A DNA stretch of 64,000 nucleotides from Stegostoma tigrinum (lineage: Eukaryota): NCBI RefSeq assembly GCF_030684315.1, contig NC_081355.1, positions 12,638,761 through 12,702,760 on the forward strand, written 5' to 3'. The notes beneath the pieces were generated by a model that saw only the letters and a program-made list of their open reading frames with translations, did no database searches and was not told the DNA's origin. Shown piece after piece: positions 16,040 through 62,150 of the stretch. Each line of letters begins with the position of its first letter. The first letter of the stretch is position 1. Position numbers and translations under genes: made by a program.

Positions 16040-17330
16040 ACATAAGACCATAAGACATAGCTGTAGAAGTAGGCCATTAGGTCCATTAAGTCCACGCTGC
16101 CATTCAATTAGATCATAGCTAACCTGATAACCCTCAAAACCTTCTGAAGAAGGGTCCAGGCCCGAAATGTCAGCTTTCCTGCTCCTCTGATGCTGCTTGG
16201 TCTGTGTATCCATCCGGCTCTACACCTTGTTATCTCTGATAACCCTCAATTCCATTTTCCTGCCTCATCTCCTCAATTTTGATTCCATTACTGATTAGAT
16301 ATCTGTCTATTTCAGTCTTGAATATGTTTCATAACCAAGCCTTTGCAGTGCCCTGTGGTAAAGAATTCATAAATTCACTACACTTTGAGAGAAAAAAATC
16401 CTCATTGTCTTCAAATGTGTGATTGTTTACTCTGAGATTATGTCCTCTGATGCTAGACTCTCTCAATAGGGGAAACAACTTCCCCCTTCTATCCTATCAA
16501 CTCCAACAATTTTTTTAAATGTTTCTATAAGATCGTATCTCATTCTTCTAAACTCCAATGAGTTCAGGCCCAACCTACTCAACTTCTCATAAGAAAATTC
16601 CACCATAACCGCGATCAGCCAAATGAACCATTTCTTCAAAGCATTCATATTTTTCCTCAAATAAAGAGGCCAAAACTGTTCGTAGCATTCCAGGTTTGGT
16701 CGAACCGATATCTTGTATATTTTTAGCTAGACTTCCCTATTTAATGCCCTTTCCTTTTGAAGCTAGAGCCAACATTCCATTTGCCTTCCCAAGCACCTGC
16801 TCACTTTGGACGATAACTTTTGGTGATATATAGCCAAGGACTCCCACATTTCTGCTGCAATTTTCCACAGTGTTGCCTTAATTAAATAATATTCAGCTCT
16901 TCTACTCTTCCTGCAAAAGTGCATAGCCTCACATTTTCTCACATTATATTACATCTGCCAAGTTTTTGCTCACTTTCTTAATCTGTCTATATCCCTCTTG
17001 TTTTTTTGTGTCATCCTCACCATTCACCTTGCTACCTATTTTTGTGTCATCCAAAAGCTTGGCAACTTTCACTTTTGACATTCGTTCATTTTTATTGCAA
17101 ATAATTGTGGACCCAGCACTGAAACCCATGGTACTCTGGTAGTTACAGTTTGCCATCCTGAAAATATCCCCTTTACCCCAACACTCTGCACCCTAATTGT
17201 TAGCCAATTCTATAACCACGCTAATATACTCCCACCACCCCATGTGCTCTTGTCTTATTAAGTAGCCTTATGTGCGGTACCTTATTGAATGCTTTTTGTA
17301 AATTTGAATCTATTACATCGACAAATGTTC
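16040..17330 (-). mobile_element. Decayed CR1-like LINE
   Basis: ORF fragments LSRLGLNSLEFRRMRYDLIETFK and KLLDDTKIG (degenerate FADDTK) on the - strand. Confidence 0.7.
16138..16235 (+). mobile_element. Solo ~98-bp Penelope-like terminal-repeat insertion with hammerhead-like core
   Basis: CTGAAGAAGGGTCCAGGCCCGAAATGTCAG near its 5' end. Perfect 14-bp flanking repeat CTGATAACCCTCAA at 16124-16137 and 16236-16249. Confidence 0.75.
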
Positions 17331-17541
17331 ACTCTGGTTGTTTCCTCACATTTTATAAACTTAAAGCTCTTATTGCCTGTTTTTATGTTCCTTGTTAGTT
17401 TGCCTTCATACTTTAGTTTCTTTTGATCATCTTTGTTGGCTTTTAAAACTTTCCCAAATCCTCAACAAGTTCTCTTTCAACTCCTCTCATTTTCCTCAGG
17501 TAAGAGAGGTTGCCATGGGTACCTGCATAGGCCCTTGTTAT

Positions 17542-17671
17542 CAGAGATAATGGGAACTGCAGATGCTGGAGAATTCCAAGATAATAAAATGTGAGGCTGG
17601 ATGAACACAGCAGGCCAAGCAGCATCTCAGGAGCACAAAAGCTGACGTTTCGGGCCTAGACCCTTCATCAG
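17542..17671 (-). mobile_element. Solo 130-bp Penelope-like terminal-repeat insertion inside the older PLE RT
   Basis: Perfect 13-bp flanking repeat AGGCCCTTGTTAT at 17529-17541 and 17672-17684. Removing the insert rejoins the RT motif. Confidence 0.8.
17644..17671 (-). ncRNA. Minimal type I hammerhead ribozyme core (family A, intact)
   Basis: Minus strand reads CTGATGA-A-GGGTCTAGGCCC-GAAA-CGTC: conserved CUGANGA and GAAA boxes, stem II hairpin, GUC triplet and palindromic ACGT helix III. Confidence 0.65.
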
Positions 17672-19939
17672 AGGCCCTTGTTATGCCTGTCTCTTCATAG
17701 CATACGTGGAACATTCCTTGTACCAGTCCTATTCTGGCCCCCACCCACAACTCTTTCTCCAATATATCAATGATATCATCAATTCTGCTTCCCTCTCTTG
17801 TCTGAAATTGGAAAACTTCAACAATTTTGCCTACAATTTCCACCCTACCCTCACTTCCATCTTGTATATCTCTGACTCATCCCTTCCCTTCCTCAACATT
17901 TCTGTTTCCATTTCTGGGGATTGGCTGGCCACTAATATCCACTACAAACCCCTGACTCCAACAGTTACTCGGACTATACATCCTCACACCCCACTTCCTG
18001 TAAAGACTCCATTCCATTCTCTCAGTACCTCTGACTCCATTGCATATGTTCAGATGAGGCCAACTTTGACAAGGGAGCCTCCAAAATGTCTTTCCTCAAC
18101 CAAGGATTCCCCAGCTCTGTTGTCAACCGGGTCCAACCCATCTCCCGCACTTCTGCCCTCAACCCTTCTCTTCCCTCCCACAACAGTGATAGGGTTCTCC
18201 TTATCCTCACGTACAAACCCACCAGTATCCACATCCAGAAGAGCATCAGATGTCATTTCCACCACTTCCAGTGAGATGGCACTACCAGACACATATTCCT
18301 CTCCCCTCTCTTGTCCGCCTCCCACAGGGACCATTCCCTCCGGGACACCCTGATCCACACTTCCTTCACCCCCAACACCTCCTCACAGCCATATGGCACC
18401 TTCCCCTGCAACCAGCGAAGGTGCAACACCTGCGCATTTACCTCCTCCCTCCCCAGTATCTAAGGGGCCAAACATACCTTCCAGGCAAAGCAACATTTCA
18501 CCTGCATTTCTCAGAATCTAATCTACTGCACTTGCTGCTCACAATGTGGTCTTGTCTACATTGGGGAAACGAAGCATAGACTTGGCAACTGCTTCGTAAA
18601 ACATCTATGTTCTGCTCGCAAAAAAGACCCTGAACTACCAGTTGCCTGCCACTTCAACGGACTACCCTGCTTCCAGGCCAACATCTCTGCCTCTGGCTTG
18701 CTGCAGTTTTCCAATGAAACCCAATGCAAGCTGGAGGAACAACACCTTATTTTCTGCTTGGGGACCCTACAGCCTCCAGACTCAATATTGAGTTCAATAA
18801 TTTTAGGGCCTAAACTCTTCCATGACCCAGTCCCCCACCCTGCACACCAGGCCTTGTTACCACACAGCCTGCCACTAAACACCCTCTGTTGTTAGTCACT
18901 AACAGTCCCCATTAACAACTATTCACCCTCCCAGCCTGATCATTAGCAACTCCTTTGTTTGTCCAACTGGCTTTCTCTCTCTTTGGGCTCTATCCTATTG
19001 TTTACTCCCTACCCCACCCACCTCCCTATTTTCTGCATATAAACTGACATTTTCCCAGATACCATCAGTTCTAAGGAAGGATCACCAGACACGAAACATT
19101 AAATCTGTTTTTTCCTTCATAAATGCTGCCAGACCTGCTGAGCTTTTCCAGCAACTTCGTTTTTCTTCCCGATTTATAGCATCCATAATTTTTTTTCGGT
19201 TTTTCTGATTTATCACTAATCTTTTCCATATCGTATGTTTTGTTTTTCTTTCTGTTTGATGCTATTCTTAACTTCTCTAGTTAACCATGGTCAGTTTATC
19301 CCTTTTCTAGAACTCTTCTTTCTCACTGGGAATATCTTTACTATGAGCCATGAACAACTTTCTTAAATGTTTGCCATCAACTGTCTTTTCTGGTAAACTC
19401 CTTTCCCAGTCCACTCCAACCAACTCTTCCCTCATTCTTATGCAATATATGGACTACATTGTTGAAAACGACAAATGCATCCCTTTCCACATTTAACCAT
19501 TCGAATTGTGTGAAAACAGTGTCCCATTATACACAAATTGCCTTTGGATGAGATTGTATTCCATTAAATATAATTCCATGGAGAAAGAGTTAATAGTTTG
19601 AGTCCAAGGTGGTTTTTATGCTGGTGAAAAGCTGGAGGAGGCAACAGGAGTAAGAAGAGGAGCTCAGAAATAGGCTAGAGAGTGAGAGATTTGATCTCTA
19701 ATCTCCTTCACCCTCTAACATTTTACTGACTACTTCTTGCTCCAATTGCCCTCATCCCTATTTTTAACTGCATAAAACTCAACACTTTCCCACCTTTCTT
19801 TTCTGTTCCAAAGAAGAATCAGAATGGACTCAAAACGTCGACTTTGTTTCTTTCTCCACAGATCTTCCCTGATGTATTGTGTTTATTCCAGCACTTACTG
19901 TTTTTATTTCAGATCACCAATGTGTTGGTCAGTGCACTG

Positions 19940-21789: not shown

Positions 21790-23095
21790 GTACCGAAACC
21801 GCAGCCCATATCTACCACCTCTTGCCCTTTTTATTTTTAATCTGGTTTTTTTTGGTTGGGTGTTGAGGGGATAGGGGTTAGACGAGTTTCTGTCAGGCTG
21901 AGCTCTTCTACAGCTTCTATGCATTATTCATGATCTCCGGGAGCTGTGCCCCACATCGTTTCCCCCCCATCATGTGTTTTCTGCAAAGTGCGGGCGCATG
22001 GGGCTCTCCCAACACGCTTAAGGCACAGATAGAACAACGCAAAATCATCTCATTTGGTACCAAGACCACACCCCTCCCCCCCCCCCCCCCAACACACCAA
22101 AGGCATAAAAAATTGCACCATAAAGACACACCACTTTTATTGCTAAGCTTTTAACAACGTGGGACTGGGAGCAGTGATCGATTAAAGAACAGATTTTTCA
22201 AACTTAAACCCAAATGGAACTGAGGGATCCCAGTGGGATTGTCAGATTTCTGCCCATCTGTTATCTAGTGGAGATGTTCTAGTTTTATACTAATAAGATT
22301 TTCAGCCTTTTTTTGCGAAGGGCAGGGGTAGTTGATGTATTGTTTTGAGCTAGTGCAGGAGGCCATGGGAAAATACTTGAGTACTCACTGCAGAACAAAA
22401 ACAAAATTTCAAAATCGGAAATCCAGAAAGTGCAGTTGCTGTAACATCCCCATCATCAGATCAGAGACTTGACTGCCAATATATCTGTCGCATCACCTTA
22501 TGCAAATGTGTATATCCATGGTGTTACACTTTGATCATGAAAGTGTGGGTCCACCATCTGTATTTGCATTGTAACATCGCATCAGTTAATCCATCTATAT
22601 GTAGAATGCCTCAGAGATCTTGCTGCAATGCCACATTTAACATTGTAGACCTGCACAACTCAATTGTGCCATATAGTTGGCGCTAGTTCACATTTGTTAA
22701 TAGTTTTTCAAAAAAAATTCGTCAACTCAATGCTGACTTCAGGTGGCAGCCTCAAGTGTGAACCACTGATAATATAAGACCATTGGTGGTGGGTATTGGC
22801 AGGTTTCTTGATCTCCCTGAAGGAACATTACCCTTCTCTGGGCATTACAGATAATGGTAACATCTTGCCACCATGTTCTCTCTGGCTTGTTTAAGCAACC
22901 ATTCATTGGATGAAGGGAAAGACCATGCAGGAAGAGATGATTTGATATTGTGCCATCAGACTCTCAAAAAAAACAAGCCGCAATTAAAACAACAGGAGGA
23001 AAATAAAGCACCCAAAACAAAGATTTTCTGATTGGTACACACACACACATTATTGGAAAGAAAAGCAGGAGAGGTGAACCCTTATGAATAGTGAT

Positions 23096-23299
23096 AACAA
23101 AGTGTGAAGCTGGATGAACACAGCAGGCCAAGCAGCATCTCAGGAGCACAAAAGCTGACGTTTCGGGCCTATACCTCTCTGGTGAAGGGTCTCGGCCCAA
23201 AACGTCAGCTTTTGTGCTCCTGAGATGCTGCTTGGCCTGTGTTCATCCAGCTTCACACTTTGTTATCTTGGATTCTCCAGCATCTGCAGTTCCCATTAT
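23096..23299. mobile_element. Fold-back Penelope-like terminal-repeat element in tubulin intron 2
   Basis: Near-perfect inverted ~80-bp arms around a degenerate hammerhead (CTGGTGAAGGGTCTCGGCCCAAAACGTC). Perfect 17-bp flanking repeat CCCTTATGAATAGTGAT at 23079-23095 and 23300-23316. Confidence 0.8.
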
Positions 23300-26200
23300 C
23301 CCTTATGAATAGTGATTGTCTTTTGGAACTTGCCTGTTTGATGTTACTGCCTAAAAATGCTTTTTCTCAACAATGAAATGAACTGCCTGTATATTGAATA
23401 ACCACTGCACCATTATTGTAGAATGCTAACAATATTTTTATGCAGAAAACCTCTGCATTTTCTTTTTGCAAAGAAAAAGAAAGAAAGACTTGCGTCTATA
23501 CAGCGCTTTCACGACATCAGAACATCCGAAAGCGCTGTACAACCAATGAAGTAATGCTGATGGTTTGCGAGGGAAAAGCGAAGTAAAATGTTCCGGGACT
23601 GCCTGTACCCGGTAAATGAGATGATAATTCCAGTATTCTCCGGATATTATAAATGTTATTTCAATAGTATTTGATTTAACTGTTCTGTAATAATATTGCT
23701 ATTACATTTAATACATGTTCACAATTATATTCAAGTCTATGAGGCAACAGTGAAATCTTTTCACTGTTTAAGTATTATACCTCCATCTACAACCGATGCT
23801 CTATTAATATAAAAGCAAAATATACGGGTGCTGGGTATCTGAAATAAAAGCAGAGATTGGTGGAGAAACTCAGCAGGTTTGATTGCAAGTGTGGTGAGAA
23901 AAACAGAATTAATATTTTGGTCCATTATCAATCTACTTCCAAAGACAAGTCATATTGAACTCAAACCATAACTCGGTTCCTATCTCCACAGGAGCTGTCA
24001 GATCTACTGAGTTTCTCCACCCTTTTCTGTTTTTTTATTACCCGTGCTGTATTCTCTCAGTAACACTGCTGATAATGTGCTGTAGGAACAGGAGGTTTTC
24101 AGCTGCTCAGCCCTGTTCCACCATTCAATGAGCTTGTGATGATCTGTGACCTAACTCCACATAACTGCCTTTGGCCCGTATCTCTGGAATATCTTTGCTT
24201 AACAAAAATATATCCATCTCAGATTTAAAACTAACAACTGATCCTGCATCCTCTCCCCACTTATGAGAGAGAATTCTAACTGGGAGTTCAAAACTAGGGG
24301 GCATTTTTTTAAGGTGAGAGGAGAAAGATTTAAAAAGGATGCAGAGAATGGTTTGTGTGTTTAATGAACTGGTAGGTGCAGATACAGTTACAATATTTAA
24401 AAGACATTTGGATAAGATAATGAATGGGAAAGATTTGGAGGGATATGGGCCAAATACAGGCAGGTGGAACTAGTTTAGTTTGGAATTATGGTCAGTGTGG
24501 ACTGGTTGGACCGAAGGGTTTGGTCCCATGCTGTATAACTCTAGAAGTGCCCAACTAAAGGAAATACGTTATCTTTATCCAACCTGCCATTTCCTGTTTA
24601 TGCCTTGAAGACTTCACTCAGACCATCCATAATTCGAAATAAAACTTCCTAAATTCTAGAGAAGACAGCCTTAATTTAAACATTCTTTCCTCATAACTTA
24701 ACACCTGAAGTCCAAGCATCATTTTTGTAAACCTGCATTGTACTCCCTCCAAGGCTAAGATATCCTTCCCTAAGGTGTGGTGCCTAGATCTGCTCACAGA
24801 GCTCCATGTGGGATCTGACCAGGGTTTTGTATAACTGCAGCATAATGTTTGCATCCTTGTTCTCCAAACATCTCGATATAAAGCCCTGAGCTGATCAATT
24901 CTACCATGCAAGCAGCATATATGTTGGACTAGAAGTCATTTTTTGAAGTCTCAGAATATCTAACACTTCCTTTCCCTCCTGTGGGGAGTTGATTAATAAA
25001 CCCAGTATAAAAGTTAACCACCTGTGTGGGTGTAGGTGCTCACCATTTGGAAATGTCATGAACATTCACACCTCAAAACACAGCCTGTATCTCCTGCATA
25101 AACAGTTGTACCCAGGTGTGAGGTACCTGAAAGTAAAGCATGCATTTGTGGGGTGAAAATTTGGGGCTGTTTACTGATGCATGTTTTAGCATTATTGGAG
25201 TGGAGGGGTGAGATTTGAAACATGACTTTAAGGGTTGGAAAAATTGGGCCACTTTATATACAGTGTCACAAACTATGGTGTTTTTTTCAAAAAGAAAATT
25301 GTTACATAATACTCATCTGAAAATTTAAGAAGGCTTGTCCGTGAGGAGAGACTTCACCAGAGGTTTCTCCTTTGTGTTGTCAATCATTTTGGCACCTGAT
25401 TTTGGAAAAATAATTAAAGCTGATCTTAATTTTTGCTGCTGCTTTGTGACAATATCAACTTTTCAGGATGAACCTTACTTAATTCTGAAGGCTGCTCATT
25501 TCATAGAGGAACATGCACCCTCTTTTTGCTCAATAATCTGATTATAATGGTGGACATGAATATTAATAACAGCAGGAAGGAGCTCACTATCATGAGCTGT
25601 GTTGAGAGATGACAGTGTGGGTGGATTCTACGGGGTAATTAATTGTTGCTATGACAAAGTACAAGGTAAAAATAGCGGTGTTTTTGAATGGCATTGTTGA
25701 GTGGAATTGAGATGAATTGTCCTGTAAACCAGCAATAAATTTAATCTACTTGTCAGAAACTGTGCCCTTTTAACTGATAAATACTTGAAGATGTACAAAC
25801 TGAATTTTAGAGGTGGGGTTGAAGTAGTTTTCCAAGCATCTAGACTTGGGGTGCAGGGTTTAGAGATTTGGGAGTTACAGATGATCAAAGAAAGATGATG
25901 GAATACCCCTAATTAATTGTATATAGTTTAAGTTACTTAGTTAATAGTTTACATGGAATGTTCCAACCAAAATAGAAAAGAAACGCATACAACTCATGAC
26001 AGGTGAGTTACTGATTCCAGAGGACAGTCAGTTGGATGGTGCAGAGTGTTTTTGATCTCTGCACCTAGCAGAGGTAATGTTCTGCTCAGTGGCCTGTGTT
26101 GCTTGCATAAATAGTTATGTCCAGCTATTAAGTGTTAGGGAACTCCCCTTTTCTCCATCCTTGCCTGTCCTCCTCCATCTGAAGTTTGAGCAGCTGTCTG

Positions 26201-28333
26201 ATGAGGACTAACCCCTTAGTGTGCTTTATTCTAAAGCCTGGTTGTTTACCCTGCACCAATCACTTGTGGTGGGGGGGGGGCACTGTACCAATCAACAATT
26301 ACAGGATGCATACTCAAAATACTCAGGGTAGTCCTCTCACCACCTCTACCCACTGCCTGCATCACTTTGAGATGAGATTTGCCTTTTAGTTTAGCTTGCA
26401 CTGAGAGCTAAATGTTAGCCTTTACTAGACACTTGTACTAGGTCTTCTAATCCCTTATCAATTTAGGAATGTCAACATGGAATCCTCAGTCAGGAAACCT
26501 TGACATATCTAAGGGCTGTTTGACCAGGAGAGAAAGGAAACTATTTCTCTCCTGAGGCAGACTAATGCTCTGCTCACTAATTCCATAAGAATTCTACATT
26601 TATTCCACAAAGTATCATTTTTTTAAAGCTGTCATTTCTTACTGGGAGGACCAGCACAATGGCTAAAGTTCCTCTCAGGCTGGCTCTCTGATGTGTCCCT
26701 CTGGGTTCAGAATGCAGCCAGCAATCCACCCATCAGAAACAGGGGGCCACTTTGGATAATTACGGAAGCCATCAGTGGGATCCTTTTGCAGTATTTTGTG
26801 CTGCACACGACCTTCGCAGTGTCAGGAGGTGAGAAAGTACTCAGGGCACCATGTGATTCAAGTGTAGCAATCGTTTCGAAGAAGACGATTGGCAGTGCTC
26901 AGGATGTCAGTGGGCGGATTGTTGCAATAGTTTTTTACCTTCTGGGCGTGAGCGAATTGGTTTGCCAGTGCCAGTCAGCCATGCAGCACCTCCGTCATGT
27001 GCCTGCCTTCTCTTCCCACATTCATCTCAGCAGCACATGGCATTCTCAGTGGGTGTACCCACTGCTGTTCAACTTGAGCACTCAGCATGGCACCCCCACA
27101 TCCTCAGTCCTGCCACTGTCCCTAGCTGTTCAAAGCATCCAAAGACGACTCTTAATACCTGTCTTCTGGGAAGATAAAGCCCAGTGTCCCATTCTGCAAA
27201 CATCTGCTTAGCAGGTCATAAGTTCAGCCGTCACCCATTCTGCAGTCTGTCTGTCCTCCATTTTTTCAGCATTAATCCAAAGGGAAATCTGATCGGTTGT
27301 TTAGCAAGTGGCTGATCCAACTGCTTGGTTCCACATCAGCGCCATGATCCTCTGTATACTTTGATGCACTTTGTAAAAGTAGAGTGTTAAACAACCCATC
27401 ACCATGCATGATCGTTTTCTATATGGCCAGATAGAGATAAAGGATAAAGGACCAGATTTGAATCAAGAAAGCTTGAGGTTGATTTAATGTTTAGGAATCG
27501 AACGTGAATACCTGTAGGTACCTTTGAGTATTCATTTAGAACTTTGCTCTGGGAACTAAAAATTTGATAAAAGGACTGATGAGGCTAATTGATTCATCAT
27601 AGCAGTTCCATCTTAGCACAATGTGACTAATATGCACTGACAACTGCTTATAGGTCATGCAATCTGCCAGGAAAGGTAACTCCCTGCTGTGACCTTGAGA
27701 TTGAATAGATTCAGAAATCTTAATTAGGGACAACATGATACATGGACAGAAAGAAAATCACAGTGTGAGGCCATTCAGCCCATTATGTCTGCACTGGCTG
27801 TCCCAGCATTTAAACTTATTGTCAATCTCCCACCTTTTCCCTATAGCCCTGTAAATTGTTTCCATCACCCAGTCATCCCTCTTGAATGCTTCAACTGATC
27901 CAGCGACTACCACACTTACAGCCTGTCCAGTCCCTGCTCTATCTACATCTTGTGTGAGATGTTTGCTTCCCTTTTCACAAAACATTTAAAAACTTTGCCC
28001 TCTATTTCTCAATCCATTTACAAGTGGAAACAGTTTCTTCCTATCCGCTCTGTACAGATCTCTCATGTTTTTGGCGACTTCTTTCAAATCTACTTTTTTC
28101 CTTCTCCTCTCCAAGGAAAGCAATGCTGACTTCTCCAATCTACCATTGTAACCAAGGAAATTCGTTGCTGGAACTATTCTTGTAAACTTCTATTCTGCGC
28201 TCTCCAATGCATTCATGTCCTTCCAACGGTGTGGTACTGAAAACTGTACACAGTACTCCACAGTCATAGACCTGTACAGTATGGAAACACACCATTCAGT
28301 CCATCTCATCCATGCTGACCAGATATTCTAAAT

Positions 28334-28785
28334 CTCCCCTTCCCCAACTGCATCCCTAAACCAGCCCAGTTTGTCCCCTCCCCCCACTGCACCACACAAC
28401 CAGCCCAGCTCCTCCACTCCACCCACTGCATCCCAAAACCAGTCCAACCTGTCTCCGCCTCCCTAACCTGTTCTTCCTCCCACCCATCCCTTCCTCCCAC
28501 CCCAAGCCGCACCCCCATCTACCTACTAACCTCATCCCACCTCCTTGACCTGTCCGTCTTCCCTGGACTGACCTATCCCCTCCCTACCTCCCCACCTATA
28601 CTCTCTCCACCTATCTTCTTTTCTCTCCATCTTCGGTCCGCCTCCCCCTCTCTCCCTATTTATTCCAGAACCCTCACCCCATCCCCCTCTCTGATGAAGG
28701 GTCTAGGCCCGAAACGTCAGCTTTTGTGCTCCTGAGATGCTGCTTGGCCTGCTGTGTTCATCCAGCCTCACATTTTGTTGTCTTG
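28334..28785 (+). mobile_element. Penelope-like element 3' end with pyrimidine-rich tract, short tandem units and intact hammerhead core
   Basis: Same family as 7310-7680 and 30075-30560. Flanking TATTCTAAAT at 28324-28333 and 28786-28795. Confidence 0.75.
28691..28718 (+). ncRNA. Minimal type I hammerhead ribozyme core (family A, intact), sense to tubulin intron 2
   Basis: CTGATGA-A-GGGTCTAGGCCC-GAAA-CGTC. Confidence 0.65.
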
Positions 28786-30074: not shown

Positions 30075-30560
30075 GAGGTGTAGAGCTGGATGAACACAGC
30101 AGGCCATGCAGCATCTTAGGAGCAGGAAAGCTGATGTTTCGGGCCCAGACCCTTCAGCAGAAATGGGGTAGGGGCAGAGGGTTCTGAAATAAATACGGAG
30201 ACAGGGGAGGTGGATCGAAGATGGATAGAGGAGAAGATAGGTGGAGAGGAGACAGACAGGTCAAAGATGCAGGGATGGAGCTAGTAAAGGTGAGTGTAGG
30301 TGGGGAGGTAGGGAGGAGATAGGTCAGTCCAGGGAGGACGGACAGGTCAAGGGGGCAGGACGAGATTAGTAGGTAGGAAATGGGGGTGCGGCTTGAGGTG
30401 GGAGGAGGGGATAGGTGAAAGGAAGAACAGGTTAGGGAGGCGGGGACTAGTTGGGCTGGTTTTGGGATGCGGTGGGGGGAGGGGAGATTTTGAACCTTGT
30501 GAAGTCCACATTGATACCATTGGGCTGCAGGATTCCCAAGTGGAATATGAGTTGCTGTTC
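30075..30560 (-). mobile_element. Penelope-like element 3' fragment
   Basis: Reverse complement of the 7230-7680 and 28334-28785 sequence, including the terminal repeat. Confidence 0.75.
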
Positions 30561-33500
30561 CTAGCCACTCAAGTTTGATCGAGAATGGCATTTTAAAAAA
30601 AATTTAATGCTTAATCATTTTACTTATTGCAGTAGAGGTATGAGTTGTTTTTATATTGGGTAACATTGGTTTGTTGGGTTGAAACCTTGTATACTTTATG
30701 CTGGGGCTTTAAAATCCAGTTAATATTGGAGAAGATGTACATTAAAACAGTGAGATTACAGAATATATGTATAGTTTTTCAATCGCAGTGAAAAAATTAA
30801 ACATCTTTTCAAAATGAGCAAATTTTAATGGTGAGTCATCAATGCCTTTGTTACGTGGAGATGAGATTATTATGCTAAAATAACCTGAGAATATATGGAA
30901 CTATATAAAATATGTATATATTATTTATTTACACACACACACACACGTCATTAAAGATGACACCATAGGTAGAGAGAGCTGTTAATAAAGCATACAGTAC
31001 TCTAGGCTTCATGAATGGGACCATAGAGTACAAGAGCAGGGGGATCACAGCAAACTCATATAAAGCTCTGGTTAGATCTCAGCTGGTGTACTGCATACAG
31101 CTCTGGGTGCCACATCATTGAAAGAATTTGAATAACCATTCTGAAGAAGGGTCACTGGACCCAAAATGTTAAATCTGTTTTCTCTTCACAGAAGCTGCCA
31201 GACCTGCTTGCCTTTTAGAGCAATTTCTGCTTTTGTTTCTGACTTCCAGCATCTGCTGTACTTTTGTTTTTTTATTATTCCAGTGCTCTCCAGGCCACCG
31301 TCTAAAAGCTTAAACACATTCAGTCCTCTGCAGCGCTATTCCATCTCGCACTAAATCCTATTTGACCATCACGCCCATTCTTGCAGATTTACCTGGTCCA
31401 GTGACACTCAGATTTTATAAACTCTCCTCGTTGTTTTCAAATCTTCCATGGCCTCACATTTCCTTATCTCTGTAATCTCCTGCAGCCCTACAGTTCTCTG
31501 AGATCGCTGCTACTCCAAGTCTGGTCTGTTTGGTATCCACAATTTCTAGTGCATCCTCATTGGTGGCCCTGCCTTCAGCAACTCAGGCTCTATGCTCTGA
31601 TATTCTCTCCCTAAACCTCTCCTCCTTAAAGACACTCTTTGGAATCAGTGGCTCTAACCAAGTTGGTCACCTATCCAATTGCTACCATATTGCCTCACAA
31701 ATAGATTGGGAACGTTGTGGAGGGCTAGGGGCCAGGAGCAGCCAGGTGGGACTAGTTTAGTTTGGAATCCGTGCTGCATGACTCAATGACTGTAAATCTG
31801 AAGCAGATTTGGCTTATACCACCAATCAGTAAGATCACAGCTAATCTGATTTTAACCTCAACTCCAGATTCTGCCCTACCCTCAAAAATTTTTCACTCTT
31901 GCTTTTTCAAGAATCTATCTACCTGTACCTTAAATAATATTCAAGCATTCTACTTCCGTCACCCATTGAGGAATGAACTTCCAATACTGTCAACATTTTG
32001 ATACAGAAAGGTCTCTTTTTCTCTGTCTTCAATGGGCAGCTCGTCATTTACAAACTCTGACCCCCCAGTTCTAGAATCTCCCAGCAGAGGAAACATCCTT
32101 TCCACAACCGCCCTGTCAGTTTCAAACAAATCTCCTCTTACCCTTCTAAACTCCAGCAGATATGAGTCTACCATGTCCAACATTTCCTCATAAGTCAACT
32201 CCCAAATCCAGCTATTAGTTAAGTAGACTTTCTTTGAAGCACTCCAATACAGTTACATCCTTAAAAAGGCAGATTAATTTGTACAACACTATAAATATGA
32301 CCTCACCGGTGGTCTGGGTAAACTGAAGCAGGTGGCTAATTGTCAAACCTTGTTTGATGATGCTGTTGTAAATGGCTTTCTACAATTAGGTAACTGTGTA
32401 AATGCACATTGTTGTTGTGTGAAGATTTATCACAGTCTCCTTCGGTCAAAGAGTATTTTGTTTTCACTCCTTTTGTTGCCTGTCACTGGAACATTTCGAC
32501 CGGCAGGAAAAAGGTAGAACAAAATTCCTCTCTAATGGAGACATAAAGTAACCAGTGAGAAATCAATGATTTGTTTCACACCTCCTGCCTGATTTCCTCC
32601 CCATCTACATCAGTGCACTGGATTGTCAGGAAGGTAGATACCACAACTTTTAACTAGCAATTTGGTGCTCCTGCCAAAGTTGTATGTTTCCCTTCAAAAA
32701 CATGAGTGCTTTCAGTGCTGGAATACATGGTGGATCTTCATTGTATTTTGTTGGTAAATGTTGAATTAACTCTGTTAAGATGTGTTGTGACTAAAATTAT
32801 TATGTAATTTGTCTTTCTGGGGATGCCTTTTCAAGTAGAATTGCTTTACTTTCATTTTGCTTGGTTCTGATTTTCTGATGGGCACCAAACTCTTAGAAAC
32901 CAATTGCTTTGGAAAATGGCCTTGCCCAAGTTGGAATGAGCCTAGTTTATGTAAGTTTTTGTCAGATTCTCGCTGTAGACAAGTCTCCACTATGTTTTAA
33001 GACTGTATTCATTGCAGAATACTTCCAAACTAGATATAATCCTGAAATATCACACCTATACATAATTTTTTAGTCAACTTGCATGTGGGGCAATGAAATG
33101 GAGGAAGAAAACCATTAGATTCAGAGGTATGATACTGTACAGACATAATTACTGCATTTTGATATTGTATATCCGGTTTTAAAGAGATGATCGGTATTTT
33201 AAAGAGAATTTTAGTTCTTTTTTAAATAAAACACTTTTAACTTAATAAATTGCAGAAATAGTTTAAAATGGCATAGCATTCGTTTGCAACCTTCATTAAA
33301 GTTCTAAACCTTCACTATTTCCTGAGTATAAGAGGAATTTTACTAACAAATTACTAATGGGAGAGCAGGCATTGATTTTGATCAAAGGGAATAGGAGCAG
33401 GAGTAGGCCATTCAGCCCTTCAAGCCTGCTCCTCCATTATATATGATCATGGGCTGATCATCCAACTCCATTCGCTGTTTCTGTTTTCCCTCCATACCCA

Positions 33501-36533: not shown

Positions 36534-37880
<1,347 letters not shown>

Positions 37881-38668
37881 CCTCCCTGACTGCCCTCCCC
37901 GCCATCCTCCTCCTTCAGAGCCGGCAGTGTTGTAGTTTTATTCTTCCTTTGACCTCCTTACAAAACAAATTTGTGGGTTTTAAACTCGTAAGTCTTGTCC
38001 CTGTCCAACGTAGCATTTTAAGTGTCAAGTGACGCTGTGGAAACCATGACTAAATAGCGACCCATGCACTCCGTTTCCGTTTTCCTAACCGCCGAAATGA
38101 TTTTGAAGGCGTCTTGTGTCGAGTAAAGTTCGCGTTTAATGTTCTCGTCACCTGAAGTGAGTGAAATTTCAAACTGCTGCCTGTTGGTTGAAGTATCTCA
38201 GCTGATAAAATTTACAACACTCAACACGGCTCAGAAATTTGAAACTGTGCGGATGCTCCGAAATCTGAAACAGAAACTGGAGCTGGATGAACACAGCAGG
38301 CCAAGCAGCACCTTAGGAGCACAAAGGCCGAGACTAAGATGCTGCTTGGCCTGCTGTGTTCATCCAGCTCCACACTTTGTTATCTCGGATTCTGCAGCAT
38401 CTGCAGTTCCCATTATCCAGCATCTGTGGAGAGAGAGAAAAGCAGAGTTAACATTCTGAGCCTATTGACCCTTCTTCAGGATTGAAGAGGCTAACCTCTG
38501 CTTTCTTTTCACAGGTGCTGCCAGGCCTGCTGCGTTTCTCCAGGAATTTTTGTTCTTGTTCCCATAATTTGAACTTTGTTCGTTTCAGTGTTGAACATTT
38601 GATTGTTTGTTTGTGACGGTGCCTCTTAAGGGGCTGACACTCCTTTTTAAATCTTTCTTCATTTGATT

Positions 38669-38698
38669 CTGAGGAAGGGTCACTGGACCCGAAACGTT
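38669..38698 (+). ncRNA. Minimal type I hammerhead ribozyme core (family B, intact)
   Basis: CTGAGGA-A-GGGTC-ACTG-GACCC-GAAA-CGTT: perfect 5-bp stem II with a 4-nt loop and palindromic AACGTT. Related copies at ~31141 (+), ~54960 (+), ~55398-55429 (-) and ~58965-58995 (-). Confidence 0.6.
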
Positions 38699-40487
38699 AA
38701 CTCTGTTTTTTCCTTCGCAGATGCTGCCAGACCTGCTGAGCTTTTCCAGCAATTTTTGTTCACATGATTTAACTGATTTTAAGTGGCTTAAAAGAGCTTT
38801 CCGTGAAAGGATGTAGCAAAATGGGTGTTGGACACACTTCTGCCCAATCATCCAGGGTTTTGTGCTGTGATCCCACAGACAGGTGTGAGCGTCTCTTGCT
38901 GGGACAATGTTTGCTGACCACCCATGATTGCCCTTGAGAAGGTGGTGAGCCACCACCTTGATCTACTGTTGTCTGTATGGTGTGGATCTACAGAGGACAC
39001 TCTGAGGAAGACAGTAAAGGCAGCAGAGGAATAACATTCTAAAAGGCCATGTCATGGATGTCCAACTGTTGGTTCAATCTGTCAATCAAAAAGGGTTGAG
39101 AAAAATGTAGGAGAATAGTTTAATACCTGTTAATATATTGTTTCTGCCTGAAACATATAAGTTGACTACAGTGTTGACTTACTTAGTGACCACACTTTTA
39201 AAATAGTCCATTGGTTGCAAAACACTTTGGGACTGCATGGAGAAATAATAAAGTTATTTAAATGAAAATTCTTAGTGATTTTTCTCGAGTGTTTACCACT
39301 AACCCTCGTTTCTAATGGATTTTTCTCTCTCATCCAATGGCTTCTTTTTCTGCTCCTGCACCCTTTGTACGGCCCAGGGATGGACTGTTAGCAATCTCCC
39401 GTTTTCAGCTACATTTGAGAGTGTCAGTTTCCATACACTGCCAGCTCTGTGTCACTACCACCTCTCTTGACATCTCCACCGTCTCTAAACTGCTCATCCA
39501 ACATCCAATACTGGATAAACAGAAACTTCTTTCAATTAAATACACAGCAAGACTGAAGCCATGTTTTCAGATCCCACTCCCTAGCCACTGAGTCTGTCAC
39601 TCGCCCTGGCAACATTTTGAGATTTAGCCAGTCTATGCCTTAACTTGATGCAAGTTCCCTTCCATTGTCACACCTGCTTTGCTGCCTTCCATTGGCTTCT
39701 GATCAAGTAACATATTTATATTAATATCTTCATTGCTGTTTGCAAATCTCTCAATGGTCTTCTTCACTGTCTCTCTAACTTCTTCCCAAGCTTCAGATAT
39801 TGCACCTTTCTAAAGGTGGCTTCTTATGCGTCCCATTAAAAACAAATTACTCAATTTAGTAGGTATGACTTCAGTGCCTCAGCTTTAATATCTGGAATAC
39901 ACTCCTTTAACCTGTCTGCCATCTGTCCATCAGGTGTCTTCCTTCCTGGTTCCCATGCAAATTCAGCTGCAGGTGCCACAGACCCCTAACAGAAACCCAA
40001 ACCTGCTTGACCATCATCTGTATTTAGATAGCACCTTTAGCATTGTAAAATGTCCCAAGGTGACGTGTGTGTGTGTGTTGGAGGGATTGATGATTGAGTC
40101 CGCCAGCCCAGAGCTGTGGTATTGATTAAGTGGACTTCATCTTAAAATCTTTCTAATTTTTCCCCCTTTATTATGTTATCATGGAAGGACTGTCATTCTG
40201 AACTTTTTATCTCTTTATTTTTCTACATTATTACTATGATTTTGTACTTTTGAAGGTCTGTAATGCTGGGCTTTTTATTTTCTAACTTTTTTCTGAAGAA
40301 TTTTTACTGAAGAATCTGTACTTGGGTACGTTTGTACTTAAGATGATGCCATAAGTGGTGATTTGTAAACTTTTCATGGTACTCCTGTGAGTACATGTGA
40401 CAATAAAGCTAATTCTATCAGACGATGTTTGCTGCCAACCCACGTGACATGATAGTGGGGCATGTGACCAAATGTTTGGTCAAAGAG

Positions 40488-40624: not shown

Positions 40625-40659
40625 TGAACAGCTGAAGACAGAATCACAAAGGTGTTATG

Positions 40660-41660
40660 GTGGTGGTGAGTGGGGTTCCACAGGGCTCTGTCCTTGGGCC
40701 TCTACTGTTTGTAATTTTTATTAATGACTTGGACGAGGGAATTGAAGGATGGGTCAGCAAGTTTGCAGACGACACAAAGGTCGGAGGTGTCGTTGACAGT
40801 GTAGAGGGCTGTTGTAGGCTGCAGCGGGACATTGACAGGATGCAGAGATGGGCTGAGAGGTGGCAGATGGAGTTCAACCTGGATAAATGCGAGGTGATGC
40901 ATTTTGGAAGGTCGAATTTGAAAGCTGAGTACAGGATTAAGGATAGGATTCTTGGCAGCGTGGAGGAACAGAGGGATCTTGGTGTGCAGATACATAGATC
41001 CCTTAAAATGGCCACCCAAGTGGACAGGGTTGTTAAGAAAGCATATGGTGTTTTGGCTTTCATTAACAGGGGGATTGAGTTTAAGAGTCGTGAGATCTTG
41101 TTGCAGCTCTATAAAACTTTGGTTAGACCGCACTTGGAATACTGCGTCCAGTTCTGGGCGCCCTATTATAGGAAAGATGTGGATGCTTTGGAGAGGGTTC
41201 AGAGGAGGTTTACCAGGATGCTGCCTGGACTGGAGGGCTTATCTTATGAAGAGAGGTTGACTGAGCTCGGTCTCTTTTCATTGGAGAAAAGGAGGAGGAG
41301 AGGGGACCTAATTGAGGTATACAAGATAATGAGAGGCATAGATAGAGTCGATAGCCAGAGACTATTTCCCAGGGCAGAAATGGCTAGCACGAGGGGTCAT
41401 AGTTTTAAGCTGGTTGGTGGAAAGTATAGAGGGGATGTCAGAGGCAGGTTCTTTACGCAGAGAGTTGTGAGAGCATGGAATGCGTTGCCAGCAGCAGTTG
41501 TGGAAGCAAGGTCATTGGGGTCATTTAAGAGACTGCTGGACATGCATATGGTCACAGAAATTTGAGGGTGCATCCATGAGGATCAATGGTCGGCACAACA
41601 TTGTGGGCTGAAGGGCCTGTTCTGTGCTGTACTGTTCTATGTTCTATGTTCTATGTTCTA
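40660..41660 (+). mobile_element. Young 5'-truncated CR1-like LINE with uninterrupted RT C-terminal ORF and (GTTCTAT)n tail
   Basis: ORF 40657-41565 (302 aa) has SGVPQGSVLGPLLF, KFADDTK and LERVQRRFTRM with no stops. It ends in GTTCTATGTTCTATGTTCTATGTTCTA. Confidence 0.92.
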
Positions 41661-51710: not shown

Positions 51711-52541
51711 TAGGGGGTTGCAGGATTCTGCAGCATGGTCCCCCATGTGGCTGCCAAGTGTGAGAGCTGCCAGTGTCTGATTGTTTGGGGGTGAAGTGAT
51801 GTCACATCTCAGGGTTCTCAGTCAAAGAGGAAGGCCTTTGGTGTCTATGTAAATGCCTGATCAGTGAACCTTCCTCCCAGGTAGAGCAGGTGTGTCTAGA
51901 CAGGATCCTCTACAAAGGTGTTTCCGCCCACAGAATTATGGAATGGTTACAACTCTGAAGGAGGCCCTTCAGACCAATGAATCCATGCCAGCTCTCTGCA
52001 AAGATTCAGCAGCTCTCTAGTTTCTCTTCCTCACCTTTTCCTTGAACCCTGCAATCTTTTTTTTGGTCTTTTCAACTAACTATTTCAAACTCTCATTTGA
52101 AGACTCGACCGAATCTGCCTCAACCACAGGAAACACTCAGGATACGTGTTCCAGATTGGACTCGCTGACTGCGAATGAGTGGTTTTACATCCTGCTGGAA
52201 AATGGAAGACTTTGTTCCTGAGAATACAAAACAATTTCTCGTTCATTTTTGAAATGAATCTCAATTCTATGAACAGTAATTTTCCACTTTTCTTTCACTT
52301 GATCTTATTGAACTTGCTCTGTTCTTTAAATTTTATGTCAACGCTTTTGACTAAACTAAGCGTAGGTAGACACAAGGCAAAAAATGCAAAGAAAATTTTT
52401 CAGTCTCATTGAACAAACATTAACAGGGTTATCAATTCCACTGAAAATTCAAAGTTCGCTCTTTTCTGTAGCGAGGCTAACGATGGTGTCACAGAACCGG
52501 AAGCAGTGAGAAATTTGGGATATCTTTTCCTACGTGCTCAC

Positions 52542-52708
52542 CTGCATTAAACCCACAGCATCTTTTGCATCTGTGTGAAAAAAATCCAAAGGAAACTCTC
52601 GTTGTGGAGGAATGGAATGTCCATAGCCCCTAGGGTCCCAGGCAACAACTGTGAAACGTTCTTTGTTCAGAGACTTGAGCTGAGGTCCAAAGTCAGTCTG
52701 ACCGCTTC
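52542..52708 (-). CDS. BPHL: BPHL exon 3 (GSGQTDFGPQLKSLNKERFTVVAWDPRGYGHSIPPQREFPLDFFHTDAKDAVGLMQ)
   Basis: 167 nt, alpha/beta-hydrolase motif AWDPRGYGHS, acceptor TTCGCAG|GA, phase-0 donor CAG|GTGAGC. Confidence 0.94.
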
Positions 52709-52799
52709 CTGCGAAAGACAGGGAGAGACAGAAACCTGCCTGTTCCTTACTAATTCCATGGAGAGTGGGCGGGTGATGGGGAGAAGGAAACCTAGTCAG

Positions 52800-53024
52800 A
52801 AAGCAACAAATGCTGGAGATCACAGCGGGTCAGGTAGCATCTGGGGAGAGAGAGAGAGCAAGCTAACATTTTGAGTCTGGATGACTCCAATGAAGAGTCA
52901 TCTAGACTTGAAATGTTAGCTTGCTCTCTCTCTCTGTGGATGCTGCCAGACCTGCTGTGATCTCCAGCATTTGTTGTTCTCAGCACAGATTCCAGCATCT
53001 GCAGTAATTTGCTCCTACACTACA
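52800..53024. mobile_element. Fold-back terminal-repeat element, hammerhead family C (degenerate)
   Basis: Inverted ~85-bp arms, central ATGAAGAGTCATCTAGACTTGAAATGTT, and flanking GAAACCTA(G/C)TCAG at 52787-52799 and 53025-53037. Confidence 0.7.
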
Positions 53025-54585: not shown

Positions 54586-55524
54586 CTTCAATTGGCTTTC
54601 CCAATCCCACACAGCATCCCCTTTTTCATGACAGCCCACTGTTTTTTTTAACTTATTATCCAACTCTCTTTTGAATATTTCCACTGAATCTGCTTTCATC
54701 ACCTTTTCAAGAAGTGCCTTCCTGATCACATCAGTTCCCTGGTTAAAAACAAATGTTTTCTTAGGTCATTTCTGTGTCTTCTTTACTCAATCCTTTTAAA
54801 TCTGCATCCTTTGCTTCCCTACCCTTATGCTACTGGAAACTGTTTTTCCTGATTTACTCCACCAAAACCATTCAAGACTTTGAATGCCTCTAATAAATCT
54901 CCTCCTAACCTCCTCTGTTCTAAGATGAGCAATCCCAGTTTCTGAGCAAGTTTTCTGTTCAGAGAAAGGGTCACTGCACCCGAGACGTTAACTCTGTTTT
55001 TTCCTTCATAGATGCTGTCAGACCTACTGAGCTTTTCCAGCACCTTTGTTTTGGTTCACAGTTTCTCCATGCTTTCCTCATAACTAAAGCCCATTATGCC
55101 TGGCACCATTCTCATAAATATCTCATCATCTTCTCCAAATACCTTCACATCCTTCTTAAAGTATACTGCCAGAAATAAACACCATATTCCAGGTCAGGTC
55201 AAAACAGTGTTTTATCTTCCTTCCTTTTGTATTCTTGCATTAAGAGCAGGGTTAATATATGCTTTTTAACAGCCTATTGAAACCTGCCTGCCACTTTTGA
55301 CACCGAAAGAACTGTGGATGCTGTAAATCAGAAATAAATACAGAAATTGCTGAAAAGGCTCAGCAGGTCTGGCAATATCTGTAGACAGAAATCAGAGTTA
55401 ACGTTTCAGGTCCAGTGACCCTTCCTCAGAGGTAGGAAGACACATGTGCTGCCTGTCCAAACTGTCCCCAACTACTTTCCCAGCGGTTGTGTTATGTCTC
55501 AGTGTTGCAGAAGGAAATGGACAT

Positions 55525-56942: not shown

Positions 56943-57547
56943 CTGCAATAAAAATAAATTAAAAATCAGTTTATTCCATTTCACACATATATAGAAACAC
57001 CTCATGCAGATTTTTTTATTCACTGGTGGGTCTCCTCTGAACTGCTTCCAATGCAACTACATCCTTCCTTAAGTGAGGGAATCAAAACTATTCGCAATAT
57101 TCCAGGTGTGGTCTCACTAATGCCTTTTACAGTGGCAAAGCTTCCCTAGTCTTATACTCTATTTCTTTAGCAATAACTGTCAAAATTCCATTTGCTTCTT
57201 TACTATCTGCTGTATCCACATACTACTTTTCTGTGATTCATGAATAAGGATACCTTTGAAGCCACTCACCATCCTAACTTGGAAATATATTGCTGTTCCT
57301 TGGAGCCATAAGCTGATTCTGCCATTCCAAGTGATCACAACCTGTTGTTGCCCCATTTTCCATAGTGCCTCTGGCTGAAGAAATGTACCAATCACCTTAT
57401 GAAAATAAACAATTGATCCCAGAACATTTCCCTGTCACAGAAGATAGTTCCAAACTTCTAATATCATCCAAGTGTACAGTCGATTTTCTAACTTCAGCCA
57501 TGAAATTCTACAACCAACATCACCAAGGAAAACACGTATTTTGCTTT

Positions 57548-57677
57548 CAGAGATAATGGGAACTGCAGATGCTGGAGAATCCGAGATAACAAAGTGTGGA
57601 GCTGGATGAACACAGCAGGCCAAGCAGCATCTTAGGAGCACAAAAGCTGATGTTTTGGGCCTAGACCCTTCATCAGA
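57548..57677 (-). mobile_element. Solo Penelope-like terminal repeat (family A) in BPHL intron 1
   Basis: Same 130-bp unit as 17542-17671. The hammerhead core carries CpG-type mutations (CTGATGAAGGGTCTAGGCCCAAAACATC). Confidence 0.75.
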
Positions 57678-61200: not shown

Positions 61201-61794
61201 CGCTATGCTTGGTGACCTACACCGGGTCAAACAAATGCCTTGAATTTAAAATTCTCCTTGTCTTCGCCCCTGCTTTAGGGGAAAAAAAAGTATGTTGTGA
61301 ATGACACTTCATGTATACCTCAATGCAGTGCTCCACGTACGACCAGTACATTCATTTCCAAGTGTCACTGTCATTCCACACCCTGACACCTCGCCCCCTG
61401 CCCTGCCCCGTCCCCGTAGGGTTGCCCGTCAGCTCCTCCAAACTCACCCTTTTCACCCCCGAGAAATCTGCACTTCTATCATTCCGGCCTTTTTGTGCAC
61501 CCCAGATTTGAATGACTCCACTTTTGATTCCGTGCCTGCCCCCAAGTCTCTGGAAACCTCTCCCTCCTCAAATAAAACTTCGATGTTTGGTTGCTTCTGA
61601 TCTAATACCGTTTTGCAACTACCCAGCGCTGTACTTGGTTTTGCAGTTACTCCTGTGCAGCACTTTGCACTGCGTTGAAGGTGCTACATAAACAAAGGTA
61701 GTTGTTGTTGTAGTAGAGGACCCCCGTTCCTGCATTAAGCCATCGTTCTTTTTGGGGCTGCGGATGGGGGTGAGGTGGGTGAGAAACTGTCTTT

Positions 61795-62150
61795 CTGAAG
61801 AAGGATCCCGACCCGAAACGTCAATTTTCCTGCTCTTCTGTCTGGCCTGCTGTGTTATTCCAGCTCCGCACTATGTTATTTCCAAAAAAAAAGGGCTGTC
61901 GCTGGATACGAGAGAGATAATGGGATAACAAAGTGTGGGGCTGGATGAACGCAGCAGGCCAAGCAGCACCAAAGCTGACGTTTCGGGCCTAGACCCTTCA
62001 TCAGAAAAGGGGGATGGGGAGGGGGTTTTGGAATAATTCGGGAGAGAGGGGGAGGCGGACCGAAGATGGATAGAGGAGAAGATAGGCGGAGAGGAGAGTA
62101 TAGGTGCGGAGGGTATAGGTCAGTCCGGGGAGGACGGACAGGTCAAGGAA
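61795..62150. mobile_element. Adjacent Penelope-like terminal repeats in opposite orientations; intact hammerhead core at 61977-62004 (-)
   Basis: + strand CTGAAGAAGGATCCCGACCCGAAACGTC at 61795. - strand CTGATGAAGGGTCTAGGCCCGAAACGTC, which is sense to BPHL. Confidence 0.7.

Follow-up and report, generated by a model that had tools for sequence, protein, structure and literature searches.

Hammerhead ribozyme motifs occur in the terminal repeats of a Penelope-like retrotransposon in Stegostoma tigrinum, and junctions among the genomic copies of this element suggest, on sequence grounds, that the ribozyme is cut in vivo and that the cut RNA is copied repeatedly by a telomerase-related enzyme. 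The window, which is the whole stretch of DNA analysed here, is 64,000 nucleotides long. According to the explanation as a whole, the hammerheads belong to a Neptune-type Penelope-like element whose transcript starts with a cap, is cut after GUC and is copied with repeated restarts, and we give it a probability of about 0.78. The ribozyme motif has already been described for Penelope-like elements, and the junction evidence is the new part. Throughout, positions in the element are counted from C3 of the core, which is 0, so that the predicted cut lies between +27 and +28.

The first-pass annotation of the window listed four intact copies of the motif, all of which were confirmed. Three belong to family A, with the cut triplet GUC (17644-17671 on the minus strand, 28691-28718 on the plus strand and 61977-62004 on the minus strand), and one belongs to family B, with the cut triplet GUU (38669-38698, plus strand). 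The mutated copies that it listed were all located within a few bases, but two of them, 55402-55429 (minus) and 61795 (plus), retain all catalytic bases and deviate in helix II alone. A loose pattern of the motif matched the window nine times against an expectation of 1.28, a number reached by none of 100 shuffles. With a profile built from 15 window copies, the window gave 37 matches and 600 kb of genome sampled at even spacing gave 188, against none in the reversed control. In the whole genome (3.2 Gb in 835 contigs), the exact family A 31-mer occurs 89,060 times and the exact family B 33-mer 614 times. No hammerhead family was returned by an Rfam scan of the window up to an E value of 5; as the Rfam hammerhead models require helix III, this blank result is no test of the motif. 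The miRNA-like Rfam matches in the window are spurious and arise from fold-back pairs of element ends, namely an old pair with family B-like ends at 52809-52970. The motif in the window is real and of a known kind.

The copy at 28691-28718 (plus) is a minimal hammerhead of family A, composed of CUGAUGA, GAAA and the palindrome ACGU. The extra A after A9 lies at 28698, helix II is formed by 28699-28702 pairing with 28707-28710, and C17 is at 28718, which places the predicted cut between 28718 and 28719. The proposed reading as a hammerhead core is supported by the presence of CUGANGA and of GAAA with U16.1-H17, the cut triplet being GUC in families A, C and D and GUU in family B. Three oddities that had been flagged were also found: the extra A after A9 is kept across four related families; helix III has no loop, the palindromic ACGU of all four families permitting it between two copies; and helix I of family A is weak, with two pairs. 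Helix I has four pairs in family B and 2+1 in family C, and 75% of its cells are paired in a 10-copy alignment. Helix II, with four pairs including G-U or A-U in families A, C and D and five pairs in family B, is 95% paired over the 10 copies, and the G10.1-C11.1 pair is present. Across families A-D, the catalytic bases and helix II are conserved, and variation is seen at position 7, in loop II and in the flanks. A covariation test on 10 copies from these four families gave no significant result (two pairs with two-sided change, a score equalled or exceeded in 230 of 500 shuffles), the families being too alike. In the predicted fold of the family A monomer, an off-state hairpin that buries the core makes up 83% of the ensemble; a dimer through ACGU can be drawn, but the lowest-energy predicted dimer fold differs from the active one. 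Dimer cleavage is reportedly dealt with by Lunse et al. A U at position 17, which family B carries, makes a poor hammerhead cut site. Taken together, the presence of minimal type I hammerheads, without loop III and with an extra base after A9, in the pseudo-LTRs of the element is shown. The extra base, the missing loop III, the palindrome and the short helix I are all described by Cervera and De la Pena in 2014 (PMC4209133), and thus the flagged oddities are published traits of Penelope minimal hammerheads and are not new.

The proposed location in Penelope-like terminal repeats is borne out by two near-complete elements (L137 and L138), in which hammerheads about 3.6 kb apart occupy both repeats and the first ATG follows the 5' core at a distance of about 165 bases. 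Loci around exact motif copies hold reverse transcriptase (RT) and GIY-YIG frames, and in 10 of 16 loci chosen for long frames the core stands 225 bases past the stop, often with an inverted 3' piece in front. The frame P0001 (1019 open codons) is a single ORF with the RT followed by GIY-YIG, and it matched RVT_1 at E 8.5e-6 and GIY-YIG at E 0.0039, both below the Pfam cut-offs; a solved-structure search with P0001 and a Pfam search of the decayed window frames gave no match. The linker between RT and endonuclease reads C-x4-C-x2-C in four loci (L002, L005, L008 and L029), with one cysteine changed in P0001, and a CX2-5CxxC linker at this place is described for Neptune-type elements (PMC8557442). 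By these protein features, the carrier is an endonuclease-positive Penelope-like element of the Neptune type. Its copies end at two sites, at about +91 to +98 and at about +124 to +131, and partial tandems, inverted 5' copies and an optional tail of 30-40 bases are seen among them. The N-terminal third of the ORF (L123, L132 and L128) holds a variable tandem repeat rich in proline, threonine and aspartate before the RT.

The claim that the window copies sit in repeat ends near RT or GIY-YIG remnants held overall, but the adjoining RT remnant does not end in the copy at 17644. This copy is a later, short family A insertion (17542-17673, minus) that starts two bases before the core, has a tail, is flanked by a 13-base target duplication at 17529 and 17672, and is nested in the RT of an older element. 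The latter is a decayed family B Penelope-like element (17388-19190, plus) with RT and GIY-YIG remnants, a TATAAA and its own decayed hammerhead at 19071-19100.

A first RNA end is indicated at the foot of the core. In a survey of 664 kb of unselected DNA, which contained 162 copies of at least 85% identity, 31 copies have their 5' end at -6 to -1 (14 plain ends and 17 inverted joins), 9 have it in the 94 bases from -100 to -7, and 31 reach past -190. In 114 of 122 family A copies whose upstream DNA is intact, a TATA-like box stands at -34; it stands at -35 in 7/7 family C copies, and family B has TATAAA at -33 in 8/8 copies. As these copies were preselected for a box in a 16-base window, the result is the offset of the box and not its presence. 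The usual spacing from TATA to start is about 30 bases, and we take the sequence at -4 to be initiator-like in families B and C and TCT-like in A. In the copy at 28691, the TATA-like box at 28657-28663 (plus), whose function would be that of a promoter element, stands 34 bases before C3 and about 30 before the putative start. Restarts between 4 bases before the core and 2 bases into it, joined directly to the first 3' end, were matched 49 times in the genome, and an untemplated G stands just before the restart in 28 of them (11 at -4, 8 at -2, 5 at +2 and 4 elsewhere), with 8 ambiguous and 13 without it. At the junctions of full-length L1 insertions, such an extra G marks the cap (PMC11702581). 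We infer that transcripts start capped at about -4, -2 or +2, behind the TATA-like box; in the copy at 28691 these putative starts fall in 28687-28693 (plus), which is also the 5' strand of helix I. With such a start, helix I can have no more than about four pairs. A local count of G before 5' ends (26/59) is mixed with selected loci and was left unused as evidence.

Long copies do not begin at the capped end. Among 36 body-containing 5' repeats (one pair of which is a duplicate), none begins at -8 to +6, 19 run further upstream unbroken and 17 are cut at +7 to +121, which implies that long copies came from templates continuous across the start. Such templates may have been either read-through tandems or a ligated circle, the latter having been proposed in 2014 (PMC4209133). 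A splice site as the cause of either boundary was rejected, the nearest acceptor-like AG being at -22 and the nearest donor-like GT at +25. An acceptor-like sequence is found further on in family A, 2 bases before the first ATG (about +163; L114:7588-7617, L132 and L137), and no donor was identified for it; it is reminiscent of the 5' UTR intron of Drosophila Penelope (PMC2377424). In family B, the stretch past the cut (window 38693-38723 and others) holds a branch-point-like sequence, a pyrimidine tract and CAG followed by ATG, and thus resembles an intron acceptor overlapping the ribozyme, while families A and C have no AG there.

The second RNA end was sought with a genome-wide pattern made of the first 3' end, up to 14 bases, and then the element from +37 onward, which gave 154 matches. 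Among the 100 of these 154 matches that were listed, which were classified by eye, 83 restart at +28, 3 at +27 and 1 at +29, with 2 more at +24/+25 and 11 at +30 to +37; by locus, 47 of 63 among the matches listed restart at +28. A binomial test was applied to the +28 counts. None of the 83 restarts at +28 among the matches listed is preceded by an untemplated G. When the second 3' end was taken as donor, the pattern gave 63 matches; 5 of these belonged to the first end and were dropped. The remaining 58, also classified by eye, comprise 31 restarts at +28 (in 7 cases a 2-base overlap blurs the position), 3 at +27, 1 at +29 and 23 at +30 to +37, and none lies upstream of +26. The donor ends share at most 1-2 bases with the sequence at +28, so the position cannot be put down to overlap. 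Because gaps were limited to 14 bases, restarts before +26 are undersampled, the jump scan leaves +3 to +23 outside its range, and the counts do not extend to family B with its U17. Such jump junctions are rare, 154 and 58 among roughly 250,000 copies, or under 0.1%.

Several of these junctions occur in series. At 13 loci among the matches listed, they form head-to-tail arrays with a spacing of 68-69 bases and up to nine junctions, and 9 of these 13 arrays have junction letters that vary from unit to unit. Five junction types occur in an array with the second donor, which has six units of about 100 bases. The unit of the shorter arrays can be seen in the copy at 28691, where the portion of the terminal repeat between the cut site and the first reverse-transcription start (28719-28785, plus), which forms its 3' part, is the 68-base stretch that serves as the tandem-array unit elsewhere in the genome. 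Sixty sampled loci with boundaries at +24 to +36 included four direct joins with a restart at +28. All this is most simply read as an enzyme that reached an uncapped RNA end at +28, ran off it and then began anew. That junctions of this kind carry a cap-like G at the start site indicates that restart junctions record RNA ends, and that the rare junctions restart exactly at the predicted cut suggests that the RNA is cut in living cells. Two other candidates were dropped. A pile-up of 5' ends at +26 to +33 (21/162) was considered as a mark of cleavage, but a genome-wide count with 60 and 20 sampled loci showed mostly inverted joins at short overlaps, the plain rate being background; a structural stop at +28 is unsupported by predicted folding.

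The junctions at +28 might instead have been made on DNA: the GIY-YIG endonuclease would nick old copies at +28, and a new cDNA, begun at the 3' end, would pair with homologous upstream DNA and thereby duplicate the stretch, so that a ribozyme cut would be unnecessary. This route appears improbable to us. It is known that Penelope elements insert into or beside older copies (PMC6765202) and that the enzyme from Anolis can cleave its own repeat as DNA in vitro (PMC11167929), and a route of this type would also agree with the plain insertion junctions, which do not accumulate at +28 (rates per base of about 0.09% at +28 to +31 and about 0.10% inside the core, rough values from 60 and 20 sampled loci). 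However, the nick would have to coincide by chance with the ribozyme cut. Two or more junctions are held by 13 of the 47 loci with +28 restarts among the matches listed, though fewer than 0.1% of copies have any, and the differing junction letters of the units point to one continuous run. Start-site junctions of the same kind bear the cap-like G, and the sequence from +28 follows only 1 of 334 called 3' junctions, with crude end calling. At one locus (L235) a cycle was broken off at +65 and then restarted, leaving a unit that starts at +65, and two others (L192 and L210) show jumps between +28 and the element body. The DNA-level route is weakened by these observations.

An RNA end at +28 could also be produced in vivo by a protein nuclease, or the arrays could derive from small ligated circles, with the motif serving as a protein or folding signal. 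The very weak helix I and the off-state predicted fold are in line with this, as are the little activity of minimal hammerheads in vitro (PMC4209133), the Anolis RNA that was cut only with protein added (PMC11167929) and the identical junctions of some arrays among the matches listed. Against it stands the single-base agreement with the hammerhead site. The Anolis cut needed C3-G8 and not the endonuclease active site (PMC11167929), which speaks against a nuclease, and one circle would give identical junctions, whereas most arrays among the matches listed are mixed; we regard this explanation as slightly less probable still than the DNA-level route. Least credible, and in our judgement very improbable, is a core that is vestigial or kept for promoter or splicing functions and simply carried along at the transcript start. 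The core does sit at the putative start site, Naiad elements have spread without hammerheads (PMC8557442), and covariation is not significant. Yet families A-D keep the catalytic bases and helix II despite differing from one another in loop II, at position 7, in the upstream repeat and in the downstream tract, and the restarts at +28 would be left unexplained.

In the preferred explanation, with a capped start, a ribozyme cut and repeated restarts, the ribozyme would be the first 32 or so bases of a capped RNA that starts at about -4, -2 or +2, as the junctions indicate. The RNA alone would prefer an inactive hairpin. Base-pairing through ACGU would bring two copies together, probably with the aid of the protein that the element encodes, as in published relatives, and the RNA would be cut after GUC, removing the capped leader and leaving an uncapped end at +28. 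Judging from the junctions, the reverse transcriptase would start internally at about +91 to +98 or +124 to +131, run to whichever 5' end the RNA has, and occasionally restart, giving arrays of 68 or 100 bases. A likely, if speculative, role of the cut would be to decap the message and so turn it into an untranslated template, and, again speculatively, cuts in both repeats could yield a unit-length circle for full-length partial tandems. Most genomic copies, including that at 28691, are truncated leftovers. Several observations speak against this explanation: plain junctions are not enriched at +28, jump junctions are rare, helix I of family A is very short and the predicted monomer and dimer folds are not the active ones, covariation is not significant, family B carries U17, and in Anolis insertion in vitro proceeded without cleavage and no reads ended at the site (PMC11167929). 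We lean, by a narrow measure, towards reading the genome as a fossil record of the capped start, of a germ-line ribozyme cut at the predicted base and of telomerase-like copying in 68- and 100-base units. If this is true, the hammerhead would be a protein-triggered decapping switch that turns message into template.

The function of hammerheads in Penelope-like elements has been called unclear (PMC8557442), and the question addressed here is whether ribozymes as weak as these cleave in vivo, and for what purpose. From genomic sequence alone, the restart junctions show RNA 5' ends at single-base resolution; the approach can be applied to other genomes with many Penelope-like elements, and it names the exact RNA ends to look for. 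If the closest relatives of telomerase do copy a bounded template repeatedly, this would also matter for the origin of repeat addition. Our literature search found no paper on shark Penelope hammerheads, although Lunse et al., Arkhipova et al. (2017) or supplementary files may list shark motifs, and none that describes cap marks at the junctions of Penelope elements or arrays bounded by a cut.

The minimal hammerheads of Cervera and De la Pena share with those described here the type I core, the lack of loop III, the palindromic 15.2-16.2, the G10.1-C11.1 pair, the extra base between 9 and 10.1, the short helix I, the place in both pLTRs and the mostly solitary copies (PMC4209133). They were reported in Xena, Poseidon and Neptune elements of fish, and no shark is named in the searched parts of that paper. 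Their helix I typically has 4-5 pairs, and 2 in D. virilis, while helix II has 4-5 pairs here and helix I of family A has 2. The copy numbers also differ, with 89,060 exact copies of one 31-mer here versus about 4,000-9,000 motifs in coelacanth and Xenopus. According to that paper, activity was low also for dimers and there was no evidence in vivo (PMC4209133). In the Poseidon element PAc of Anolis, which has a hammerhead in its pLTR (Frangieh et al., 2024; PMC11167929), two internal reverse-transcription starts likewise lead to an optional tail of 30-40 bases, and the hammerhead was cut with the assistance of protein in vitro. PAc is of the Poseidon clade and its ORF starts inside the ribozyme, whereas here the first ATG comes about 165 bases after C3. 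The Anolis insertion in vitro did not need cleavage and no reads ended at the cut site; unlike here, no restart arrays or cap marks are reported in the part of that paper considered (PMC11167929).

Non-LTR retrozymes likewise consist of short tandem units that each carry a type I hammerhead (PMC7229834), and a preprint describes retrozymes or hammerhead-bearing tandem repeats in one cartilaginous fish (Li et al., 2026; 10.64898/2026.07.22.740005). Hammerhead-bearing tandem units were also found in the genome studied, with about 445 bases in three units (L114:7329-8434), 329 bases in six or more (L139) and 293 bases in four (L140); these arrays are made of internally deleted elements with inverted 5' pieces and are retrozyme-like, and further arrays are visible as regular spacings among 2,553 tail-to-body matches. 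In contrast to retrozymes, copies such as that at 28691 are solitary ends, and the 68- and 100-base arrays lack the core because they begin at the cut. With R2 (Eickbush et al., 2013; PMC3774820), the present element shares that genomic 5' junctions record the ribozyme cut site and that untemplated bases are added as the enzyme runs off. R2, however, has an HDV-like ribozyme and belongs to another retrotransposon class, and its cut sets the normal 5' end, whereas here the cut is visible at rare restart junctions alone.

The copy at 28691 belongs to the 5'-truncated 3' end of a young family A element (28326-28785, plus; 460 bases, 96% identical to L137), which begins with the last 43 codons of the ORF (28326-28454, plus) and is probably an inert insertion. 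The intact family B core lies in a short copy at 38667-38760 (plus) with a five-pair helix II and U17, and that at 61977-62004 lies in a family A copy with upstream repeat (61924-62149, minus) which faces another copy at 61792-61880 (plus). Another short family A copy (57547-57680, minus) starts four bases before the core and has a tail. Besides the old pair at 52809-52970, two fold-back pairs were found. The one at 23079-23316 combines an inverted piece with a forward copy that begins 5 bases before the core at 23179, and has a 17-base target duplication; the one at 4486-4701 has a forward copy that is preceded by a G and whose first base lies 4 bases ahead of the core at 4610. Family C is represented by an inverted pair of 3' ends (6220-7690) with GIY-YIG remnants and decayed cores at 6320 (minus) and 7599 (plus), by a short copy (16124-16249, plus) that starts 2 bases before its core (16144) and has a 14-base target duplication, and by a 3' end (30078-30614, minus) with an endonuclease remnant and a decayed core at 30160. 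Family B contributes a short decayed copy (31139-31229, plus) and two short copies in 54957-55431, of which that at 54960 (plus) is decayed and that at 55429 (minus) has its catalytic bases intact, and a decayed family B-like core at 58995 stands beside a remnant of the RT N-terminus (58912-59191, minus).

None of the listed records that carry the sequence is on record as RNA. Presumed-RNA contigs from four runs of related organisms cover the stretch, their ends, strand and splicing being unreadable from the contigs. In contigs of three runs of related organisms (X3, X4 and X5), the 5' body of the element is joined back to the core start, and many of them start 2 bases before the core with unrelated flanks, as in the genome studied. 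The long open frame at 36534-37880 (plus) is presumably an exon of a beta-tubulin gene, and 5435-5806 (minus) and 52530-52829 (minus) are taken to be exons resembling PSMG4 and BPHL; we assume that PSMG4, BPHL and beta-tubulin form a conserved vertebrate gene neighbourhood. The segment at 40636-41565 (plus) and many shorter pieces are presumably fragments of a CR1-like LINE reverse transcriptase.
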